From Trichormus sp. ATA11-4-KO1 (GTDB taxonomy: Bacteria; Cyanobacteriota; Cyanobacteriia; Cyanobacteriales; Nostocaceae), in the NCBI GenBank assembly GCA_019358915.1, contig JAHHIM010000050.1:1-25548 (forward strand): DNA of 25,548 nucleotides. The letters run 5' to 3'. The position numbers were made by a program, and so were the translations under genes. Under the pieces are notes generated by a model. It had not been told where the DNA came from and did not search any database. It saw only the letters and a list, made by a program, of their open reading frames with translations. Shown in pieces: positions 1-25,001 of this stretch. Position 1 is the stretch's first letter. Every line of letters begins with the position of its first letter.

Positions 1-136
1 CAACGAGTTGGACGGCTAGTTCGTAAAACATTGTCATTCTCTAAAATGCTCGACAACCATATTGGTGCAATTTGGTATTTTGTTCATCACTACAATGCTA
101 ATTTAAGAAGCTAAATCATTACTATGCGCTACTACC
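1..136 (+). mobile_element. IS1-family insertion sequence, right end (transposase C-terminus plus terminal inverted repeat), cut by window edge
   Basis: Frame 1 (1-114) reads QRVGRLVRKTLSFSKMLDNHIGAIWYFVHHYNANLRS*, matching the R(L/V)xRKTLSFSK..H C-terminal motif of IS1 InsB-type transposases. The reverse complement of the end at 136 begins GGTAGTAG, an IS1-like terminus. Confidence 0.85.
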
Positions 137-354
137 GCCTGCTGCAATCCATGTTTATCATTGCCCACAAAACTGGTAAGCCTATTTACGAAGCCATGCA
201 ATTATTTATTAGTAATCCAGCCACAACCATTAACCTGTTCCATGACAGAGGTAGTTTAGAAGTTGGTAAACGGGCAGATTTTGTCACCGTTCATGATGAT
301 GGCATGGTGCCATGTCTAATTTCAACTATTTGTCAAGGTCGTCGTGTTGCTTAA
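137..354 (+). pseudogene. phnM: 3' fragment of alpha-D-ribose 1-methylphosphonate 5-triphosphate diphosphatase (PhnM), interrupted by IS1
   Basis: LLQSMFIIAH...EAMQLFISNPA...DRGSLEVGKRADFV...CQGRRVA* matches the PhnM/amidohydrolase C-terminus (SLLxAAF...NPA...DRGxIxxGKRADLV...GxRV). The ATG at 124 lies inside the IS end. Confidence 0.75.
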
Positions 355-793
355 TTTAACTTTGGAGTTGTCAAAACAACGTTAATCAAAATTCCAAATT
401 TGATGTGATATGTGGACTCAATAGAAGTATTAGCCAATAGCCAATATTAATTATGATTGAGATATCTGAAAAATTTCTCGATTATCAAATCACAAACTTT
501 TGCGCAGCTTGTGACTGAGTGAGTAATATATTATTTAGTTTAAACTCTAATATAGTAATAATTTATGGTAAACCTGCAATGGAAGAGTAAGAGGATTTGA
601 TACATGGTATAGAAAAAAGCACATAAAGTAGTGTAGAAACTAGAAATAACGCTTGAGTATGCAAATTATAGCCATATATCTCGAAATTCAGATTTATTCA
701 CTGTAAATAGGCTCAAACTCAAGTTAGGACAGGCTTTTAAACGGAGGTATAATTTCCTCTACGGAAATGATATATTATGGATAAAAGTAAAAC

Positions 794-1039
794 ATGAATA
801 AAAAATGGGCTGTTAAAAGACTCACAGTCAATCTCACCTCAGGAGAAAGAGAAAAACTAGAACGCTACTGTGCAATGACAGGAAGGCCAGCAACCGATGT
901 TATTCGGGAATTACTCCGCTCTCTTGAGGTTGAAAAACTTGAAAAGGCTGAAGAAAATATTGAAAAGTCCGAAAATGTTGAAAAGGAAGAAGTCTCTGGT
1001 ATTTTGGATTCCTCTCAACAAACTCATGTTTATTGGTAG
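794..1039 (+). CDS. Ribbon-helix-helix (CopG-like) transcriptional regulator with low-complexity E/K tail
   Basis: Alternating strand KRLTVNL followed by two helices (EREKLERYCAMTG / ATDVIRELLRSL), the RHH pattern. Confidence 0.75.
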   Translation: MNKKWAVKRLTVNLTSGEREKLERYCAMTGRPATDVIRELLRSLEVEKLEKAEENIEKSENVEKEEVSGILDSSQQTHVYW

Positions 1040-1130
1040 TCAAAAATCAATAGTCTGACTAAAACGTAGTTACCTAGAAGAATAAGTTTCAAAATTGTAC
1101 TAATGAGTAAAGCCAAATAATGAAAAATAA

Positions 1131-1262
1131 GCACGTTTGTTGAATGCTGCACTGATATCTGCATAAAATTGGGATTGCTCGTGTCCAAGCAGCATCTTTG
1201 TTTATTTTACGGACACGAGCCTATTAAAAATTATACAGATTAGAAGAAGTAATTATACGTGC
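1131..1262. repeat. Long imperfect inverted repeat / hairpin
   Basis: Nested arms: GCACGT (1131-1136) with ACGTGC (1257-1262); ATCTGCATAA (1157-1166) with TTATACAGAT (1231-1240), 9/10; GCTCGTGTCC (1177-1186) with GGACACGAGC (1211-1220), perfect. Confidence 0.7.
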
Positions 1263-1737
1263 GCTGTTTCTGCACTTGTTTTAGCCTTACAGAATAAAAA
1301 TATGATACTCTGCAATATCCAAAGATATGCATTAACTAAGATTTGCAAGCATGTTAAACGAAATCGTCTATGTTTTCAGTTGGTCGTCAGCTTATTGATG
1401 CTTGCGAAACAACAAGTTATTTAAAAGAGTGCAGTACTGGTGTTTATTGATTTCAGTAACTGTCTCTGATTGTTGGGCGATAAACATTATACAACTGTTT
1501 TAATATAGTAAACATCATAAGAATAAAAACAAGACTAATTAAATGTAAGCATTTGCATACTTGCAATTTTATTGGATTGGTAAAAACCGATAAAAATCAG
1601 ACATCTAGTTGATTGATAAATTGTTCTCCGGGTAGTCTAGGCTAGAAACCCAATTTCTCTAATTTCACAAATGATTTAAAACTGTTATTTTTGCAAAACT
1701 ACCTAAAATCAAGAGTAAGTTATTTATCTTTAAATAT

Positions 1738-4700
1738 ATGCCTTTAAATAATTTGAAACGCAAACGCGGCGTTACACTTACTACAAGAGGGTTACAAAAA
1801 CTTCAAGAAGCTAAGCGTAAATTAGAAGCAAAAGAAAATTATGGAAATAGCTATACGCTGGAAGAAATGAGTACACTTACTGGATTATATTCTAGTACAA
1901 TCTCAAAAGTACTCAATCGGGAAGGAGGCGTAGACAAAAAAACTCTTGACAAGTTATTTTTAGTTTTTAATTCACAAATAGATAAAAGTGATTATTTAAA
2001 CTCAAATACTCGGATAGATTGGGGAAATGCTACCGATCCATTAATTTTTTATGGACGTACAGACGAACTCGCTACTTTAGAGCAATGGATTCTTGATGAA
2101 CGCTGTCAATTAGTAGCACTATTAGGAATGGGTGGTATTGGTAAAACTGCTTTATCTGTGAAGATTTCCCAGCAAATTCAGTCAGATTTTGAATACATAA
2201 TTTGGCGATCGCTACGAGAAGCCCCACCCGTTAAATCTATTATTACTAACCTGATACAAGTTCTATCTGATGATCAGGAAGCAGAAAACAACTTATCAGA
2301 AAATTTAGGTGATAAAATATCACGATTAATCTATTACTTACAAAATACGCGCTGTTTAATAATACTTGATAATATAGAGTCAATTCTCCGCAGTGGTAGT
2401 AGAGCTGGACAATATCGAGAAGGATATGAAGGATATGGTGAGCTTTTTAAACAGCTAGGAGAAGCATCTCACACAAGCTGCTTGGTTCTGACTAGCCGAG
2501 AAAAACCTCAAGAAATAGCATTGTTGGAAGGAAAAAGACTACCTGTTCGCTCATTATCATTGAGTGGATTGAGTGTGCTGGAGGGACAAGAAATATTGAA
2601 AATTAAAGGGTTATCTGCAACAGAAAATGAATGGAAAATCATGATTGAACGTTATGCAGGTAATCCATTAGCTTTGAAGATAGTTGCCACAACCATTCAA
2701 GATATATTTGATGGTAATGTAACTGAATTTTTGGCCCAAAATACATCTGTATTTGGAGACATTCACGATATTTTAGATCAGCAGTTTGAACGCTTGTCAG
2801 ATTTAGAGAAGGAAATAATTTATTGGCTAGCAATTAATCGTGAATCAGTTACTTTATCTGAGTTACGACAAGACATCGTATTACCAAGACCAACACAAAA
2901 ATTACTGGAGTCTCTAGAATCTTTAGTGAGGCGATCGCTAATCGAAAAGGCTACGCTTACGCTAGTTGAAAGAAGTATAGCAACTTTCACTTTACAACCT
3001 GTAGTTATGGAGTATATAACTCAGGCATTGATAGAGCAGGTTTGTCAAGAAATTGTCACGGAGAATATCGATTTTTTGAGAAGCTACGTCCTGATGAAAG
3101 CGACCGCAAAAGATTACGTGAAAGAAGCTCAGATACGCCTGATTATTCAACCACTTATCAATGCTCTGCTTGTCATATTTAAAAGCAAAAGAGGTATAGA
3201 AAAACGAATAACTTCAATTTTAGCTAAGTTGCAAAACGAATCACCTCTTGAACCAGGGTACACGGGTGGAAATCTTCTCAATTTGCTTTGTCAACTACAG
3301 ATAGATTTAAAGGGCTATAATTTTTCTAATCTAACTATTTGGCAAGCAGACCTACAAAACGTGAAATTGCACAATGTAAATTTCCAAAACGCTAATTTAG
3401 CCAAATCTGTTTTTGCTGAAACCTTCGGTGGTATTTTGTCGGTAGCCTTTAGCCCTGATGGCAAATTTTTGGCTATAGGTGATACCAATGGTGAGATTCG
3501 TTTGTACCAAGTTTCAGATTGGAAACAACTTCTCACCTGTAAGGGACATACTAACTGGGTTTTATCACTGGCATTTAATTCTGATACCAGCATTATTGCT
3601 AGTGGTAGCACTGACCATACTGTAAAGTTATGGGATGTCATGACTGGTGAATGCCTTCAAACTTTGTGTGAACATGAGCATGAAGTTTGGTCAGTTGCTT
3701 TTAGCCCGGATGGTGACACACTAGCTAGTGGCAGTGATGACAAAACAGTCAAGCTATGGGATACTCACACTGGTAAATCACTGCAAACTTTCTCAGGACA
3801 CGCAAGTTGGGTACTTTCAATTGCCTTTGGTAAAGATGGGAAAACGCTAGTAAGTGGTAGTGATGACCAGACAGTGAAATTATGGAATATTAACACAGGT
3901 GAATGTCTTAAAACCTTTCAAGGACATTGTGATGGCATACGGTCAATTACTGTCAGTCCTGATGGTAAGATGCTGGCAAGTGGTAGTGAAGACCAGACAG
4001 TAAAGTTATGGAATATTAACACAGGTGAATGCCTGACAACTTTTCAAGGACATGCCAATGAAGTTTATTCAGTTACCTTTAATCCTCAAGGTGACTTTAT
4101 AGCGAGTGGCAGTTTTGACCAGACAGTAAAGTTATGGGATGTTAGTACTGGTGAATGCCTCAAAACTTTCCAAGGACATTCCGGTTGGATATTTTCGGTA
4201 GCTTTCAGTAAGCAGGGAAATTTTTTAGTCAGTGGTAGTTATGACCAAACTGTAAGATTGTGGTGTGTTAGCACAGGTCAATGCCTTAAAACCTTGCAGG
4301 GATATACTAATCAAGTACTCTCAGTCGCTTTCAATCCTGATGGGCAGACGTTAGCCAGTGGTAGTCATGACTCTTCGATCAGATTATGGGATGTTAGTAC
4401 AGGGGAATACCTGAAAACATTCCAGGGCCATCATGCTGCTGTTCGTTCAGTTGATTTCAGTCCAGATGGGTACACCCTGGTAAGTGGTAGTCATGACTCT
4501 TCGATCAGATTATGGGATGTCAGCACAGGGCAATGTCTGAAAACATTCCAGGGTCATCATGCTGCTGTGTGGTCAGTTGCCTTTAGTCCAGATGGGCAAA
4601 AACTAGCAACTAGTAGTGACGATCAAACCTTAAGATTGTGGGATGTTAACACAGGGCAATGCCTGAAAACATTTCAGGGTCATCGTGCTGCGGTGTGGTC

Positions 4701-5286
4701 AGTTGCTTTTAGTCTTCAAGGAACAATGCTAGCCAGTAGTTCTTTAGATCAGACAATCAAATTATGGGATGTCAGAACGGGCGAGTGTAAAAGAACCCTA
4801 GAGGGTCATACAGCTTGGGTTACATCTGTTACTTTCAGCCCAAATGGTGAACTACTCGTAAGTAGCAGTTATGATGGAATGATTAAGTTATGGCATGTCA
4901 GAACTTGTAAATGCTGTAAAATTTTGCAAGCAAGTACAGGTTGGTTAAAATCGATTGCATTTAGTCCAAATAGCCAGGTACTAGCTAGTTGCAGTCAAGA
5001 TAATAAAGTCAATTTGTGGGAAGTTAGTACGGGTAAATCTCTCATGACATTGCAAGGACATACGGGCAGGCTTTGGTCAGTCGTTTTTAGTCCTGATAAT
5101 CAGATTCTGGCTAGTGGTGGTGATGATGAGACAATTCGATTGTGGGATGTAGCAACAGGTAATTGCTTGAAAATTTTGAAAGCTGAGAAACTATATGAAG
5201 GGATGAATATTATAGGAATTACAGGTTTAACTACAGCGACTATCGCCACGCTGAAAGTTTTGGGAGCATATACTAGTAATAAATAA
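1738..5286 (+). CDS. STAND NTPase: N-terminal XRE-like HTH, NB-ARC domain, pentapeptide repeat, 14 WD40 repeats
   Basis: HTH-like [22 protein letters not shown]; Walker A GMGGIGKT; Walker B LIILDN; sensor LTSRE; GNPLAL (GxP); pentapeptide [18 protein letters not shown]; 14 countable GH..WD-type 42-aa repeats. Confidence 0.93.
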
Positions 5287-5292
5287 CTGACC

Positions 5293-5419
5293 TAGCCTAA
5301 TTTATGGCAGTTGCCAAGTAGCTTAGAACATAAACTAATCACAAAACCTGTATAACAAAGGACTTTCAAGTCTATTCTTTGTCCCCTGTTATCAATCTTG
5401 TCTGACATAAATTAGGTTA
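5293..5419. repeat. Inverted-repeat-bounded intergenic element (MITE-like or terminator-like)
   Basis: TAGCCTAATTTATGGCAG (5293-5310) matches the reverse complement of 5402-5419 at 16/18; internal small hairpins. Confidence 0.5.
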
Positions 5420-5451
5420 ATAAGCATAAGGCTTTCTCCGCTCTATTCAAT

Positions 5452-5556
5452 GTTAAACCCCTAACTGTCTAGGCATTACAGGAGGTTAAGGCTAACTGGT
5501 ATTACAGGCGCTTTGACTCCTTAATCCACAGGGGCTAGACAATTAGGGGAATTGAC
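5452..5556. repeat. Extended stem-loop downstream of the peptide gene
   Basis: CCCCTAACTGTCTAG (5458-5472) pairs with CTAGACAATTAGGGG (5535-5549) at 14/15; inner stem 5481-5492 with 5510-5520. Confidence 0.65.
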
Positions 5557-5596
5557 GGTTTAAGTTCAAACTACTGATATAGTAGATCAGCTGAAT

Positions 5597-5794
5597 TTAA
5601 AAACCATCAACTTCGGTATCACTGGGTAATCCTTGCGCGAATTCAGTGGCCATAATTTTTTCTAAATCATCTGTTTCGATATCATTCAAGGTATCAAAAC
5701 TGGTTTCAAAACTAGCAAAACTAGTTTTAAGAAAGTTCTGGGAAAGCTCCATCTTTAAAGAATTTTGCTCGATTGTGTTATTTACTGTGATCAT
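5597..5794 (-). CDS. 65-aa acidic peptide, candidate RiPP-like precursor
   Basis: ATG preceded by a strong SD AAGGAG (5804-5809, 9-nt spacing); 93 bp downstream of the HDO-like gene on the same strand; 13 D/E versus 3 K; no Cys, His, Trp, Tyr or Arg. Confidence 0.75.
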   Translation of the reverse strand: MITVNNTIEQNSLKMELSQNFLKTSFASFETSFDTLNDIETDDLEKIMATEFAQGLPSDTEVDGF

Positions 5795-5887
5795 TGTTTG
5801 ATTCTCCTTAAAGTTATTTCAAGTAAGGCACATCTGAGTGATCGCTTAGACTAGTTGTCTAAAATCATTCATTTTTTATGTTAGCGG

Positions 5888-6655
5888 CTAACATGCAGAT
5901 TTCGCTTGCAGAGGTGTAGATAGTTTTAGTGGGTTCAATATCCCCTGGAGTTCTTCATCTGATATGTAGTCTCCTTTGGGTGGCATAAAGCGCAAAAGAG
6001 CAGTTTCATAACAGGCTCTCGCTACACGGATGCACTCCTCGCGATTAAGCTGTGCAACGACCCTAATTATGTCATCTACATGATTCACTTCAGAGCCAAG
6101 ACTGCTATGTAAACGCAGCCACCGCGTGGCATTGATTCCTGGTGATAGCAATGCCTCTACCTTCTGGATATACTCCTTACCTACAAATGTCCCTAAGCGT
6201 TCAGTCGCATAACAAAGTCCAATACAACCAATTGGATTGGCTGCTTCCACTACTTGGGTAAAGTAATTTACATAATGCTTGGTCGTAGATGGAATGAGTG
6301 CTTGCACTACAGCTTCAGCATCATACCCCATTGACTGAATATCAAGCAGAGCAATTTGTTCGTGACCTGCCTCCTCTCTAGCTTTCTGTGCAGCCCACTG
6401 TGCCAAATTCTCGCGCCCCAAAGCCGAGAAGTTTTCGGCTGCTTTCTCCATCAGTCTTGAAGTATGGCAGCTTAAATGGTAAGCACCTGCCAGTCGCCAC
6501 ACCCAACGTGTATAAGTTCTATCTGGTGGTCTGCGATCTGATTTTACTGCATAGTAGGCCTGTACTATTGCTTGGTCTAAAAGTTTGCGCGTTTTAGTTA
6601 ACGCATCTTCATCAATATCAATCATCTTTTGGGCAAAGGAATCACTGTTTTCCAC
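5888..6655 (-). CDS. Heme-oxygenase-like dimetal oxidase (iron-containing redox enzyme / CADD-PqqC-TenA fold) candidate
   Basis: Helical protein with E94-E95-x-x-H98...D105, Y149-x-x-E152 and H183...E189-x-x-H192, the order of diiron ligands in HDO enzymes. GTG start with a GAGG SD. Confidence 0.72.
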   Translation of the reverse strand: MENSDSFAQKMIDIDEDALTKTRKLLDQAIVQAYYAVKSDRRPPDRTYTRWVWRLAGAYHLSCHTSRLMEKAAENFSALGRENLAQWAAQKAREEAGHEQIALLDIQSMGYDAEAVVQALIPSTTKHYVNYFTQVVEAANPIGCIGLCYATERLGTFVGKEYIQKVEALLSPGINATRWLRLHSSLGSEVNHVDDIIRVVAQLNREECIRVARACYETALLRFMPPKGDYISDEELQGILNPLKLSTPLQAKSAC

Positions 6656-7245
6656 GGGATTAGCCTCAATGTATCTAAGTACTGTCAGCAGTTTCCATTA
6701 CTTCTTTGCCAGGCACAATCTATGCCAATTCAGTATCAGTTGAGAATCATTAACTTATGACTTTTTTTACAATCACATATTTTTGCCATCTTGGCAACTA
6801 CTTCTGCTACTAAAAATTTTAGGTGCGGATAGATTGCTAGTGAGATAATTTTGTGTAATTCCCACTTTTTCAGATGTATTGGACTTTATAGCCTTAAATT
6901 CAACGTTCAAATTAAATCATCCAGTTAAATAAACTTAATTAAAATTTAATCTTTCAAGAAATGCAATCATAATATAATATATGGCTTATTAATTTCTGAT
7001 TATTGAGAATAGTTTTGTAAACAAACACGTTGTTTCGTGGTTTGAGGACTGCTCGTGAAAAATTAAAACTTGCCTAAAAACCTAGGTTCTACAAGTTAGC
7101 TTTTAGCTTTACCGCATTAGCTTGTTTAAGCTGGCTTAAAAAGCTTAAGTTCAATCTTAAAATCTAGATTTTCACTTGCAAAAATGATGCATGTTGGAGA
7201 ATATTAATCATGTTCATGCAAATGAAAAAAATGAATGAGGTTTCA

Positions 7246-7431
7246 ATGCGTAAAATTTCCAGTTCTGACTCTTCTAGTAAACAATGGGTAGACGAACAAA
7301 TTACTATAGACTTAGCATTAGATGAAGCACAGCTACTTGAGCAGTATTGTAGCCAAACAGGTAAAGCTACACAGGATGTAATTCAAGAGCTTATCCAAAG
7401 ACTTCCTATGATGGAGTTACACGAAGGTTAA
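7246..7431 (+). CDS. Second RHH/CopG-like protein, paralog of 794-1039
   Basis: 17/42 identities with the first RHH in an ungapped manual alignment (W..T..L...E...LE.YC..TG....DVI.EL...L). Start placed at ATG 7246 after GAGG; the ORF is open from 7210. Confidence 0.7.
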   Translation: MRKISSSDSSSKQWVDEQITIDLALDEAQLLEQYCSQTGKATQDVIQELIQRLPMMELHEG

Positions 7432-7806
7432 AACGGTATAGTGATGATTTAGCAATCTTTACAGGTCTAATTGCTCGCAAATTATTATTTATTTTATTAC
7501 GAGTTATTTTCCCTCAATTTTGGCTAATTATTCACATAAATCTACATAAAATACCGATGTTTTTATGTATAAATTTATCTAAAATTAGGTATTATTTATT
7601 TAAATAAATTCAAGATTATTTTGTACTCTCTTTTTATTGATTTCCTTTTTTAAATGGTGGCAAAAGCTATTTAAAAAAATCAACGAGAGAAGACAAAATG
7701 CGGCATGAATTTTCTTTATGTTTTATTATCTTGTGTTACGGCACGAGGTCAATAAAAGAAAGACCACGAAAATAAATATTTTTGCTGTGACACATGGAGA
7801 TAGATG

Positions 7807-7832
7807 GTGCGTTGTCGTACTGAGCAACGCAC
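7807..7832. terminator. Hairpin between convergent genes
   Basis: GTGCGTTG-N10-CAACGCAC, perfect 8-bp stem, no clear U-tract. Confidence 0.35.
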
Positions 7833-7921
7833 GCTACACAGCTAAGATTTTATTGATAATTAATCTCATATAATATCGCATTGCTTCTGCCTAATTGCAC
7901 TAGTAGGTCATTAGAGGTATC

Positions 7922-9583
7922 TTAGTTACTCTCAAACTCTTTCACAATTGGGATGGCAACAGAAGGAATCTCCGTCACTAAGCGAAATGGAAACTTAGGT
8001 GTCGAAGCTACTTGAGCATAATCTGATGTCAGAAATACAGCATATTTTTCAGCTTCTGGAGTCAGCTGCGCAGCCATTGCCAAAACTATAGCTTTAACGA
8101 ATTTGCGAATATCTGCTGCTTGTTCACCAACAACTTCACCGCCACTAAAAGGTGTATTTGGTCTTCCTACTTGATCCAAAGTAGTACTGGGGTCTTTCAC
8201 ACTTAAATGAGTACCCCCAACTACACCAGCCAGCCATTTGGGAGATGGAATTTGATTAAATCCTACAATTTGTTCAGTCAAGGCTGGGGTGATTTTATCT
8301 GCGGAACTAGCTAATACTAAGGTAGGTACTTGTACTTTAGTTAAGCCAGTTTGACCAAACATCAGAGAAGTTGTGGGATTGAGCGCGATCGCCTGCTTGA
8401 TTCTGTCATCTCGCAGTTGGTAACTTGTTTCTGGCAATTCTTGAGCAACGCACTGGATAGTTTCTCCCAGACTCAAGCTAGCCAAATTACCCTGACACCG
8501 TTGTTTAAGAAATGTCGGTTGTAACTCGGCTCCAGCAGACACTAAAGCTGTACTACCACCAAAAGAATAGCCAATGATCATCACGTGATTGGTCGCCAGC
8601 TTTCCTTGTAGTGGGTGATTAGCTGTTTGGTTCAGCTTTTCTAGTTCATCGAGGACAAAACTCACATCTCGAGGACGCTCCAAAAACTCCTGAGGCTTTA
8701 AAAGCCTGGTTGTACCTTGTGCTGCTAAATTAGTATTTGTCTCATTACTACCAGGATGTTCTAAAGCCGCAATTACATAACCGTGAGATGCTAAATGTTC
8801 TGCGAGGTAGAGCAAATCAGTACGCACAGACCCCAAACCGTGACTTAAGACAATGACAGGTTTTTCAGCAGTTGCAGCAGTTGACCAGTAAAGATCAACA
8901 GGAATGTCCCGATCGCGTTTTTGGTCATTCCAATTAAAGTTGAGTACTTGTACTTGACCTATTCCTGGTTGGGTAGGGTCAAAAGGTAAAGAAATTTGCG
9001 GTGTTCTGGGGTCGAGTTGGGGGGCGATCGCCAACATAAACTGTTGAGTGCGCCAAAAGGCCGTATTTAAACTTCCTGCAACCTGTAAAGCCTTGGGTAA
9101 ATTAATTTCCAGGCGTTGACTGGGATAGGCAGCAATAAAATTGAGTAGAGAAAGACCCTGCGGTTCACTGGCTCCTAAGACAAATGCGGCTCTCAATGCT
9201 TGTACTCCAGCCTGATCTTTGCGGACTAAGGCCTCAGAAAGGTTGCTGAGAATCGTTGTCCCAACTTGGGTATTGAGTAACCTACTGAGAGTCACAACAT
9301 TTACAGGTACTCTCATCCTCAATGCTCCTAAAAAGAAGCGGCGTTGTTCTTCAGATAATCCCTTGGTGTAAAGTTCTAAACCCCTAGGAAATTCTCCAGT
9401 TTCCGCAGCTTTTTGCAACTCAGCCAGGGAGATAGATTCTGCAAACAGACCAAAACGCACTACAACCGTATCTGCCGCTTGTGCAGACGAATTTGCTCCA
9501 CAAAACTGGGTGAGAATGATACCGATGGCAAGCGCACAACTTTGACCAGCAACTACCTTGAGCTTTTTCCAAATACTTCTCAT
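7922..9583 (-). CDS. DUF1400-containing secreted alpha/beta hydrolase
   Basis: Signal peptide ending AQA-A; N-terminal DUF1400-like region; SHGLGS oxyanion motif; HPGS; nucleophile GYSFGG; GTH. Confidence 0.88.
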   Translation of the reverse strand: MRSIWKKLKVVAGQSCALAIGIILTQFCGANSSAQAADTVVVRFGLFAESISLAELQKAAETGEFPRGLELYTKGLSEEQRRFFLGALRMRVPVNVVTLSRLLNTQVGTTILSNLSEALVRKDQAGVQALRAAFVLGASEPQGLSLLNFIAAYPSQRLEINLPKALQVAGSLNTAFWRTQQFMLAIAPQLDPRTPQISLPFDPTQPGIGQVQVLNFNWNDQKRDRDIPVDLYWSTAATAEKPVIVLSHGLGSVRTDLLYLAEHLASHGYVIAALEHPGSNETNTNLAAQGTTRLLKPQEFLERPRDVSFVLDELEKLNQTANHPLQGKLATNHVMIIGYSFGGSTALVSAGAELQPTFLKQRCQGNLASLSLGETIQCVAQELPETSYQLRDDRIKQAIALNPTTSLMFGQTGLTKVQVPTLVLASSADKITPALTEQIVGFNQIPSPKWLAGVVGGTHLSVKDPSTTLDQVGRPNTPFSGGEVVGEQAADIRKFVKAIVLAMAAQLTPEAEKYAVFLTSDYAQVASTPKFPFRLVTEIPSVAIPIVKEFESN

Positions 9584-23048: not shown

Positions 23049-24731
23049 TTAAGGATTTGATTGTTTCAATGCTTGATTTAATTGGTCTGCTGACAACGAC
23101 TTTAACAGACTGAGATTGAGAGGAGCTTGACTCAGATATTGAGCATAAGCTGGTTGGAGATAGATACTATATTCCGGGCGGTTCAGCAGATGAGTTTCCC
23201 AAAAAGCCACATTTAAAGCCTTGAGATAGGAATAAGCCGGCGCACGGTCTGGACCTAACAAGGCTGGCGGTATCGGTAACACATCATTTTCCGGAGTTGG
23301 TTCGGCAATCAAACTAAAGTGGGTGGCATTTTCGATTAAAGCTAAATACTTGTTGGGGGTAGTAAGCCAGGTGAAGGGGCGAATCTGCTCAGATACTACC
23401 GGAGTCGCAATATCTTGACTACCTGCTACCAGCATGACAGGAATTTGAATTTGACTAATGCCGCTTTGATTGAAAATGGAGCTAGATAAGGGATTAATGG
23501 CCAAGACTGCTTTAATGCGATCGTCTTTGAGTTCGTAATTTCTCTGGGGTAATTCAGTTGCTTGACACTGCAAAACAAGCGACAAATTAAAAGAGGAAAT
23601 ACCGGGATTACAGTCTTGTCGAAGTTGTTCAAAGTTAATACTTGCTCCTGCCAAAGTTAAAACAGTGTACCCACCAAACGAATGACCAATGGCCCCGACT
23701 TGCTGAAGATTAAGTTTTCCTTTAAGGCTAGGATCTGACTTTTCCATCATCTCGAGTTCATCAAGGAGAAACTTGATATCCAAAGGTCGGTTGATAAATT
23801 CCTTTGCTTCTGGTGGCCCTGCCAAACCCGTCAAATAGCGCTGCACACGTTCGGCATTACTACCAGGATGTTCCGGTACAGCTACAGCAAAACCGTAGGA
23901 TGCTAAATGTTCAGCTAAATAAGCCAAGGCAAAACGATCTGAAGCCACGCCATGAGAAATGACGATTACAGGAAAGGGAGGTGAGGGGTCGGCTTGGCTA
24001 GTTCTGAATGTGGCTTCTGGCAAATAAAGATCCATCGGCATCACGCGATCGCGCTGAAAATCTCTGAGTATAAATTCCTGGCGTTGCCAAGTAAATGAAC
24101 CAGGCGATCGCAAATCTGGCTGTTGAGAAAAGTCAACAGCAGTCTTGGCAGTTGCAGTTTGAGGCGAAGTGTTCATTAGCACAGAATGAATCGCTTCTTG
24201 TTGAACCCAAGCAACCACCTCATCCCTTTTTTTCAGTACTTGGGATAAATCATCGACTATCTTCAACCCTGCTGTAAAATTTAGGCGTATAGTACGCGAG
24301 GGAAACTTACGCAGCAAATTTACAACTGTTAAGCCTTCTGGATCAGCAGCAGCCAAGATTAAAGCCCCTCGTAGAGCATAAAAACCATTTTGGCGAGAAT
24401 CAGTGAGCAGTAAATCTCCCAAACGTTGTACAACATCTTCGCCTATGGGTGAGTAAGTAACTTGTGATACAAGGGTTGGCGTGACATTGAAACGTTGCTG
24501 GAGCAGCTCCCGCAACTGAGCTAGTTGCTGAGGATTGGTACGGCTGGCATAAAACGCCAGTTCATCAGTAATTTTGCCTTCCTTCGCAAAAACTTCTAAA
24601 GAGTCAACGCTGAGGGAAAACTCTCCAAAGGGAGGGTAAAAAAAGCTAATGCGCTCAGCGCTTAGTCCAGGAGTAGCAGTTAGCAACGTAGATAGCAGTC
24701 CGAAACTCAGAGATGTCAAAATTTTTTTCAT
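23049..24731 (-). CDS. DUF1400-containing secreted alpha/beta hydrolase (second paralog)
   Basis: Signal peptide MKKILTSL...LSA-E; SHGVAS, HPGS, GHSFGG, ATHFS. Start placed at ATG 24731 after AGGGGG; the ORF is open from 24791. Confidence 0.88.
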   Translation of the reverse strand: MKKILTSLSFGLLSTLLTATPGLSAERISFFYPPFGEFSLSVDSLEVFAKEGKITDELAFYASRTNPQQLAQLRELLQQRFNVTPTLVSQVTYSPIGEDVVQRLGDLLLTDSRQNGFYALRGALILAAADPEGLTVVNLLRKFPSRTIRLNFTAGLKIVDDLSQVLKKRDEVVAWVQQEAIHSVLMNTSPQTATAKTAVDFSQQPDLRSPGSFTWQRQEFILRDFQRDRVMPMDLYLPEATFRTSQADPSPPFPVIVISHGVASDRFALAYLAEHLASYGFAVAVPEHPGSNAERVQRYLTGLAGPPEAKEFINRPLDIKFLLDELEMMEKSDPSLKGKLNLQQVGAIGHSFGGYTVLTLAGASINFEQLRQDCNPGISSFNLSLVLQCQATELPQRNYELKDDRIKAVLAINPLSSSIFNQSGISQIQIPVMLVAGSQDIATPVVSEQIRPFTWLTTPNKYLALIENATHFSLIAEPTPENDVLPIPPALLGPDRAPAYSYLKALNVAFWETHLLNRPEYSIYLQPAYAQYLSQAPLNLSLLKSLSADQLNQALKQSNP

Positions 24732-25001
24732 TAAAACCGCCCCCTGTATATCCCATCTAAACAAGTTTGGGTGGAGAAGAAAGCAGGGCATAATCTGTGC
24801 CGCTTTCCTGTTTACTGTGGTTACTCATATCAAATAGACTACAAGCAGAAGAAAGCAAGTACTTACATTCATAGTCTTACATATACTTCAGTAAATTATG
24901 CTGAAATAAATTATGGGCTAGGAGATTGCAACCAGTAGCATGATAATTAATTAAAGAGAATTCACAAATTAAACTAACAACCTAAAAGTTATATATTACT
25001 A

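Follow-up and report, generated by a model that had tools for sequence, protein, structure and literature searches.

The window analysed here is the whole 25,548-nt contig JAHHIM010000050.1 of the cyanobacterium Trichormus sp. ATA11-4-KO1 (assembly GCA_019358915.1), and at positions 794 to 7431 it carries a block of five genes. The gene for a STAND protein with a helix–turn–helix (HTH), an NB-ARC switch, and WD40 repeats converges there on a unit of two genes, encoding an HDO-fold diiron enzyme and a small precursor peptide, and a small ribbon–helix–helix (RHH) gene lies on either side. An earlier note, made from the letters alone, had taken the block for a candidate undescribed signalling module in which the enzyme modifies the peptide, or makes a small molecule, and the WD40 propellers sense the product. 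We confirmed all five open reading frames (ORFs) at the positions and in the orientations claimed there, with the HDO and peptide genes forming one unit that faces the 3′ end of the STAND gene:

794 to 1039, plus strand: RHH1, 81 aa, small CopG-like RHH protein (PF01402 RHH_1, E 0.009, below cut-off)
1738 to 5286, plus strand: STAND gene (HTH-NB-ARC-WD40), 1182 aa, proposed receptor and transcription switch
1738 to 2022, plus strand: N-terminal basic motif and Cro/C1-type HTH of the STAND protein, predicted to bind DNA (PF13443, E 0.005, below cut-off; columns conserved in the alignment)
2023 to 3417, plus strand: NB-ARC switch, helical domains, and pentapeptide stretch of the STAND protein (Walker A at residues 130-137, Walker B at 208-214)
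3418 to 5187, plus strand: 14 WD40 repeats of the STAND protein, probably two propellers, proposed ligand-binding part, co-varying with the cassette
5597 to 5794, minus strand: precursor peptide gene, 65 aa, acidic leader ending L-E-x-I-M-x-x-E-F-x-Q-G
5600 to 5629, minus strand: core LPSDTEVDGF (predicted, 10 residues), following the conserved Gly at 5630-5632 (putative core boundary)
5804 to 5809, minus strand: ribosome-binding site AAGGAG of the peptide gene, 9 nt before the ATG, read from the sequence
5888 to 6655, minus strand: gene of the HDO-fold diiron enzyme, 255 aa
7210 to 7431, plus strand: RHH2, 73 aa, paralogue of RHH1, divergent from the HDO gene

The block had also been called compact and AT-rich; its GC content is low (0.29 to 0.47 per 500 nt), but mostly because of long spacers. 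A Pfam scan of the block proteins found neither a protease nor an exporter inside it, in agreement with the note.

A scan of GTDB genomes returned 88 HDO relatives, the best 80 of which were kept as the loci behind all counts out of 80 below, and a peptide profile was iterated on these loci with matches required within 1.5 kb downstream of HDO. The precursor peptide follows HDO in 79 of the 80 loci, and the remaining locus has a divergent candidate. An NB-ARC STAND gene lies within 10 kb of HDO in 62/80 loci and is convergent in 61/80, where naive chance would give 2 to 4%; the note had named the lack of such preferential adjacency to STAND-WD40 genes as what would refute it, and the adjacency is there. 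Sixty-one of the STAND-bearing loci span 23 flank-context groups, the largest with 27 loci. Within the source genome, the window holds the only HDO and peptide matches; the four other NB-ARC-WD40 paralogues have no HDO adjoining, and in a tree of NB-ARC domains the window STAND falls apart from these unlinked four, in a clade of 70 rows with support 99. HDO was found in 72 of 301 sampled Nostocaceae genomes (26 of 68 genera) and in only 4 of the 401 genomes of a phylum-wide sample. Of 37 metagenome loci rich in AT, many of which are short, the peptide is present in 29 and a STAND or WD40 piece in 21. The module is real, conserved, and widespread. It is apparently also undescribed so far, as no description was found in the literature titles and abstract openings searched, with most subscription papers outside the coverage.

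A 188-aa protein without a Pfam or NCBIfam match (L015:7583-8146) is encoded upstream of HDO in 21/80 loci, often accompanied by an AraC regulator and an ankyrin protein, and is possibly a member of the regulon. At L060, L063, L064, and L069-L077, HDO is paired with a peptide whose core is of the LFFNIPSSF type, and a STAND is absent. Their neighbours are hemA/hemE/hemF, a double-RHH gene, and genes of the Rieske and FAD-oxidase kinds, and a NucA/NuiA-type nuclease–inhibitor pair follows in nine of these loci.

We collected 100 copies of the peptide, 95 profile matches and 5 added by eye. Their leader motif, L-E-x-I-M-x-x-E-F-x-Q, is followed by a Gly kept in 98/100, and the core after the Gly spans 8 to 10 residues (for five rows the parsing wrongly gave 11); so parsed, the cores comprise 61 different sequences. 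The last core residue is F in 40, V in 17, L in 16, M in 8, Y in 7, W in 5, I in 3, H in 3, and A in 1, the first seven accounting for 96 of the 100. Codon differences fall on the third position in 496 of 745 cases at the leader end and in 430 of 710 in the core (147 nonindependent pairs). Tandem precursor copies were found in 6 loci. With a conserved leader and a variable, gene-encoded core beside a probable maturase, the peptide is, to judge from its sequence, a precursor resembling those of peptides made on ribosomes and modified after translation (RiPPs). The window peptide itself has no Pfam match, no NCBIfam match at E 0.05, and no usable ESM Atlas match, and it was rejected as an NHLP/proteusin (TIGR03793) precursor, a type that we found only in GC-rich relatives. 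Double-glycine leaders exported by PCAT transporters carry GG or GA before the cleavage site and come with a linked peptidase-ABC exporter. We rejected this class too, because the residue preceding the conserved Gly is mostly Q (Q 60, K 13, R 7, H 7, G 2; n = 98) and no peptidase-ABC exporter is among the recurrent neighbours. Eighteen precursors have a hydrophobic 24-residue N-terminal extension with its own ribosome-binding site and no codon bias, which looks like a signal peptide; the window peptide lacks it. Long precursors of 146 to 174 aa with a hydrophobic N terminus and Cys-Cys cores occur in L053-L055, L059, L062, and L065. Six loci (L035, L044, L067, L078, L106, and L133) have two HDO cassettes with different core types, mostly head to head and with up to six precursor copies.

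The window HDO has no HDO-family Pfam or NCBIfam match of its own and matches PDB entry 3dde by sequence (E 7e-8). Its predicted model (pLDDT 87.5) is a haem-oxygenase-like helical bundle, which aligns with 3dde at Z 19.5 and a root-mean-square deviation of 3.1 over 217 residues and with HrmI, CADD, and UndA at Z 16.7, 16.4, and 15.7; as modelled, the enzyme belongs to the HDO superfamily fold. Residues E95, H98, E152, H183, and H192, five of the six canonical iron ligands, are invariant in 32/32 close homologues. The window enzyme lacks an N-terminal extension of ∼30 residues typical of its relatives, a remnant of which, broken by a stop and an apparent frameshift, is seen at 6656-6760; the two closest homologues share the shorter start position. 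An N-terminal three-strand segment as a RiPP recognition element was a guess only and was dropped, a PqqD match being absent in 37 members. Two natural HDO–peptide fusions exist (P0065 and P0126), and in the predicted fold of P0065 the enzyme part is confident and the peptide tail, mostly at pLDDT <50, is uninformative.

The family (534 representatives) is not confined to cyanobacteria, its Atlas clusters being mostly from Pseudomonadota and Myxococcota, and 28 of the 37 more distant members match PF14518. Of 42 GC-rich metagenome loci, 35 contain an ORF of NHLP type, usually with DPGF at its end (the profile was seeded from 29 of them), and an independent TIGR03793 check on three of these precursors placed one above the cut-off and the others at E 1e-10 and 4e-8. 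The same 42 loci hold a halogenase family in 31 cases and an S8 peptidase family in 21. Since the peptide adjoins HDO in 79/80 loci, two fusions join them, and NHLP precursors accompany the distant relatives, HDO is very probably a maturase acting on the adjacent peptide, one of the two options proposed in the note. RiPP clusters of this GC-rich kind occur in L085-L163 (e.g., L099, L104, L141, and L161) and combine HDO and an NHLP precursor with one or two flavin-dependent halogenases and an S8/S53 peptidase, some adding an anthranilate-phosphoribosyltransferase-like and an Asp/Asn-hydroxylase-like gene; no literature match was found for them, and none combining DPGF and NHLP. At L135, by ORF reading only, HDO lies inside an apparent YcaO/NHLP cluster with HlyD and ABC exporter genes.

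Both precursor types, cyanobacterial and NHLP, end mostly in Phe. In MboA, the C-terminal carboxylate of the peptide ligates Fe1, with the C-beta near Fe2, at a dimetal site made of E86, H89, E143, H172, D176, and H181 (PMC13185094; here and below, papers are cited for the parts of their text available to us), and VarO is an HDO that desaturates a RiPP (PMC6511847). From the common Phe and these two precedents we infer, at roughly even odds, that the C-terminal carboxylate of the core would bind one iron and that its last hydrophobic residue would be desaturated or oxidatively decarboxylated. The chief alternative, an oxidative cut at the conserved Gly, seems considerably less likely.

The window STAND combines an NB-ARC domain (PF00931, E 9e-15) with intact Walker A and B motifs, a pentapeptide stretch, and 14 C-terminal WD40 repeats, the features of the STAND/NB-ARC class, and both Walker patterns are present in 52/52 linked STANDs. 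The note had assigned it an HTH in place of a nuclease or TIR effector. Residues 1-561 indeed have no nuclease, TIR, or caspase match; the HTH match itself is weak (HTH_26, E 0.005, under the gathering cut-off), with conserved columns among homologues. The best 150 of 730 matches to an HTH profile, spread over 244/301 genomes, were analysed: HDO lies downstream, at most 11 kb away, of 80 and is missing there for the other 70, and for 73 of the 86 best HDO matches a member of the 150 is nearby.

To the HDO-less group belongs a second cargo. We examined 60 regions covering 65 of its 70 STANDs, five at contig ends being left out, and found a ScyA-related thiamine pyrophosphate (TPP) enzyme with a protein resembling ketoacyl-ACP synthase III (KAS-III) in 42/60, typically convergent on the STAND, and a GDSL lipase in 36/60; the peptide profile had no match in the 60 regions. 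In one representative each, the TPP enzyme matches NF035927 above cut-off and the KAS-III-like protein is matched at E 2e-30. An acyl-CoA ligase occurs in 3/60 regions (L202-L204) and an ammonia-lyase piece in two of these, and a plasmid record of Gloeothece verrucosa has the same TPP/KAS-III-STAND layout. A TPP enzyme and a furanolide synthase build furanolides (PMC13288894), and the TPP/KAS-III cassettes probably make furanolide-type products. The idea of an NLR-like receptor with its own ligand generator held in part: the STAND is convergent with HDO and peptide in 61/80 loci, but its subfamily is not specific to them, as it also faces the TPP/KAS-III cassette.

Minimal cassettes of TPP enzyme, KAS-III-like protein, and GDSL lipase face this STAND subfamily in L164-L223 (42/60 regions) and L237 and are a candidate for a widespread lactone signal system in their own right. 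A second, tandem STAND paralogue with a clade of its own is found in L013, L015, L018, L023, L026, L027, L031, L032, L043, L054, L062, and L066; among the furanolide-type STANDs, paralogues of this sort lack an obvious cargo, and their propeller surface is distinct.

A receptor of this build might guard rather than listen, as fungal HET-E watches HET-C: an NLR-like protein would monitor the peptide or the enzyme–peptide complex and trigger growth arrest on its disturbance by a phage or foreign cell. The Apaf-1-like architecture and the variable propeller surface suit such non-self recognition, the closest Apaf-1 homologues are cyanobacterial (PMC13581612), and STAND-linked peptide systems have been predicted among conflict systems (PMC7159879). 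We nevertheless consider it improbable, the least favoured of the readings weighed here, given an HTH where a nuclease, TIR, or caspase effector would be expected, recurrent flanking families that are metabolic or regulatory, and a small-molecule cassette that can replace the peptide cassette; PADLOC, moreover, matched only a generic WD40 protein and, weakly, NTPases, not anti-phage STANDs such as Avs or bNACHT.

Self-protection is another use for a sensor of one's own product. The peptide or lactone would then be an allelochemical, sensed by the STAND for resistance or feedback with no role in communication. Furanolides include the phytotoxin cyanobacterin (PMC13288894), the GC-rich HDO relatives resemble ordinary RiPP clusters with halogenase and S8 peptidase, and an intracellular loop needs no exporter. 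On the other hand, specificity groups fit a cassette of one enzyme whose distinct short cores number in the dozens (61 parsed from 100 peptides), and nostoclides N1 and N2 had no allelopathic effect on three test organisms (PMC9324945), so that we regard self-protection as unlikely.

Our central finding concerns how the STAND protein varies with its cargo. We compared 52 peptide-type with 43 furanolide-type STANDs and found a single change of cargo label along the WD40 tree, against 11 along the HTH + NB-ARC tree; the nearest neighbour has the same label in 95/95 and 86/95 cases, respectively. In trees of successive segments, each of the five segments from residue 521 shows 1 label change and the four earlier ones 7 to 13, and sliding identity places the breakpoints of cassette swaps at about residues 480 to 660, just before or in the first blades. 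L019 and L165, a cross-cargo pair, have 96% identity over the N-terminal half and 54% over the propellers. In L028/L029, peptide-type propellers are attached to an N-terminal half of another kind; chimeric propellers were not found among the 95 STANDs.

The same holds within the peptide type. Core distances were computed for 52 peptide loci including the window, the other 28/80 being dropped for lack of a full-length convergent STAND or a peptide match or for double cassettes. They correlate with the distances of WD40 repeats 8-14 (rho 0.63) and 1-7 (0.55), in contrast with NB-ARC (0.16) and HTH (0.11), and the core–WD40 partial rho is 0.40 with HDO and NB-ARC removed, a value reached by 0/200 permutations. 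Where two STANDs have an NB-ARC identity of 85% or more, the identity of their propellers is 0.76 to 0.99 if the core is the same and 0.52 to 0.72 if the cores are unlike. Top-face identity, at a background of 0.65 to 0.72, is 0.74 for similar cores (5 pairs), 0.61 for intermediate (281), and 0.47 for unlike ones (355). Overall, the WD40 half co-varies with the neighbouring cassette and not with the rest of its own protein, linkage explaining part of this.

Such a pattern could also arise if the STAND were a pathway regulator that answers another cue by activating whatever biosynthetic cassette adjoins it, and its propellers travelled merely as adjacent DNA. The WD40 end, the peptide, and HDO are physically adjacent, so that co-transfer alone yields a correlation, and HDO distance tracks WD40 as well (partial rho 0.56 to 0.61). 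Furthermore, 15 of the 60 STAND regions contain neither a furanolide-type gene nor a peptide match, and XssQ is controlled by a two-component system, not by a product (PMC8205485). Against hitch-hiking stand the absence of chimeric propellers in 95 proteins, the clustering of breakpoints just before or in the first blades, and a core that tracks WD40 after HDO is removed. Pairs of loci also speak against it: L013/L027 and L023/L027 have HDO 82 to 83% identical and differ in both cores and propellers (0.60 to 0.67), whereas L013/L023, with HDO 80% identical, have similar cores and propellers at 0.85 to 0.87. We consider this reading unlikely, though less so than the two above.

Several further observations weigh against a matched pair of cassette and receptor. 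No STAND was seen in the DNA examined at 18 of the 80 HDO loci, two of these being cut off inside 1.5 kb and twelve having a common Nostoc context near haem-synthesis genes with 7.9 to 10 kb examined downstream, and the GC-rich loci (n = 42) show no match to the cyanobacterial peptide and none to STAND or WD40. No conserved exporter or protease is among the recurrent neighbours of the cyanobacterial HDO loci. A search upstream of 91 cassettes yielded no operator motif; for the two larger groups of peptide type the top-scoring motif is the ribosome-binding region, which does not recur in furanolide-type cassettes, and the XssQ consensus is not enriched (2/91 against a shuffle mean of 7.8). The predicted top-face residues, at positions known from the WD40 literature, add a modest signal: their partial rho is 0.19, which 11 of 300 random sets matched to them also attain, and that of non-surface positions is 0.21. 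The permutation counts overstate the case because the loci are kin, and with propellers ∼55% identical internal recombination is disfavoured anyway. Among advance predictions for three unlinked receptors, that for G555 gave the exact core (∼450 kb apart), that for G429 was partial, and that for G565 could not be scored; the G555 success is accounted for by shared descent. At the enzyme, the sixth iron ligand is out of register, with G/S at His+4 (G187) and E/D at His+6 (189) in 32/32 homologues, and the window and L001 peptides differ by 9 nonsynonymous and 3 synonymous codons, the pair alone showing no third-position bias. Nostoclides, finally, did not induce their own genes (PMC9324945). A complex prediction for the WD40 region (545-1182) and peptide residues 30-65 gave 0.00 in two runs and is informative neither way.

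On balance we favour, with a probability of roughly 60%, a cognate synthase–receptor pair in which the propellers would bind the product of the neighbouring cassette and the HTH would switch transcription; the gene-level evidence for a matched pair is strong, and the earlier interpretation is partly supported overall. HDO would recognize the conserved leader and oxidize the core, for both of which the indications are strong, and a general protease might free the 8- to 10-residue core, a step with slighter grounds. The propellers would bind the matured product, with the core sequence setting the specificity groups suggested by the co-variation. By analogy with the STAND family, the ligand would open the NB-ARC switch and the HTH alter the transcription of target genes. 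The same receptor chassis with other propellers may be reused for the TPP/KAS-III product, and the signal may act between cells, in quorum or kin sensing, or only within the producer. More tentatively, and at a strength well below that of the pair itself, HTH-NB-ARC-WD40 proteins could be widespread quorum or kin-signal receptors of heterocystous and related cyanobacteria, NLR/Apaf-1-type switches reading self-made signals in two chemical languages, HDO-matured peptides with dozens of specificity groups and furanolide-type lactones, plugged in by recombination before the propellers. Nostoclides have been reported as density-dependent mediators (PMC9324945), and, were this wider proposal true, these STANDs would be receptors for nostoclide-like mediators.

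The RHH genes, which the note had read as paralogous brackets of the module, are optional satellites. RHH2 has no RHH profile match, yet it is 36% identical to RHH1 over 50 aa and falls in the same cluster, so that the paralogy stands, and a third, unlinked copy lies on contig C19 of the source genome. The family occurs in 28/80 HDO loci and in 35/60 non-HDO STAND regions, but of the 28 HDO loci with an RHH gene a single one, that of the closest relative, has it on both sides, and we rejected bracketing as a defining feature, as it is confined to this lineage.

Elsewhere in the window, two inverted repeats between the convergent STAND and peptide genes, at 5293-5419 (18 nt, 89%) and 5458-5549 (15 nt, 93%), are possible terminator or stability elements. 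A promoter and terminator scan gave nothing above shuffled sequences, and Rfam had no match within positions 1-9000. Within positions 1-354, an NCBIfam scan found a C-terminal phnM fragment at 124-354, and before it, where the contig ends, lies a short frame that presumably resembles the end of an IS1 transposase. Two DUF1400 alpha/beta-hydrolase paralogues, at 7922-9583 and 23049-24791, are not conserved beside the module.

Among known systems, the nearest are HTH-STAND regulators, the FxSxx-COOH peptide systems, and quorum sensing with pherotypes. The logic resembles that of ComQXPA, agr, RRNPP/Rgg-SHP, and LuxI/LuxR, which share a modifying enzyme, a short precursor with a variable core, a co-swapped sensor, and tandem precursors. 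In the present loci, however, an NB-ARC-WD40 protein serves as the proposed receptor and an HDO as the enzyme, with neither an exporter nor a kinase linked. Co-variation of receptor specificity with the signal, one mark of a quorum-sensing pair, is seen here as co-variation of sequences, with linkage as a confound.

XssQ (Slr5058 of Synechocystis PCC 6803) is also a cyanobacterial STAND NTPase with an N-terminal HTH, an activator by electrophoretic mobility shift assay that activates the adjacent biosynthetic cluster (PMC8205485). It differs in acting under a two-component system, with no self-made ligand described in the available part of that source, whereas the present protein has a 14-repeat WD40 sensor that co-varies with a synthase. 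No Synechocystis record was among 39 plasmid matches to the HTH-NB-ARC half at 1e-25. MalT, GutR, and AfsR are named as nonimmune STANDs (PMC13581612). The FxSxx-COOH systems (Kaur et al. 2020, PMC7159879), a predicted toxin or signal, likewise couple a small, fast-diverging precursor, with its peptide at the C terminus, to a repeat-bearing STAND, but they are actinobacterial and use a metallopeptidase and a radical SAM enzyme, TPR, and TIR/vWA/ParA-like parts in place of HDO, WD40, and HTH; the NF040586 match of the window STAND covers the shared NTPase only, at 27.7 bits against a cut-off of 300.

VarO (thiovarsolin) and MboA (mangotoxin) share the HDO fold with the proposed maturase and act on peptides by desaturation, as it may, MboA being the second-best PDB match of the HDO family profile (E 8e-4) with the same ExxH(D)...E...H...H spacing. 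They differ in precursor and cluster, in the third carboxylate, out of register here, and in that the cyanobacterial HDO loci have neither a redox partner nor a YcaO or ligase gene linked to them. The furanolide clusters cyb, ncl, and mac (cyanobacterin, nostoclide, and maculalactone) share the TPP acyloin synthase and a condensing enzyme with the second cargo; the CybB/C/E/F set consists of an ammonia lyase, a CoA ligase, a TPP enzyme, and a furanolide synthase. The STAND-linked cassettes are mostly minimal (TPP enzyme, KAS-III-like protein, and GDSL lipase), and their KAS-III-like protein is a candidate counterpart of CybF, itself KAS-III-like. The main texts of PMC13288894 and PMC12481558 mention neither NB-ARC nor WD40, and the available parts of a 2026 STAND survey (PMC13581612), a preprint on amyloid-motif NLRs, and an HDO review (PMC13108848) do not describe the module.

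With this locus family, candidate receptors and ligands can be named, and variants of specificity are available from nature. If the pairing is true, NLR-type proteins extend from foreign molecules to a cell's own signals, a one-enzyme RiPP class is added, probably with new HDO chemistry, and swappable sensor modules become available for waking silent biosynthetic clusters. The evidence suggests a new kind of chemical signalling switch, whose logic is like that of LuxI/LuxR and ComQXP, yet no part comes from those families.

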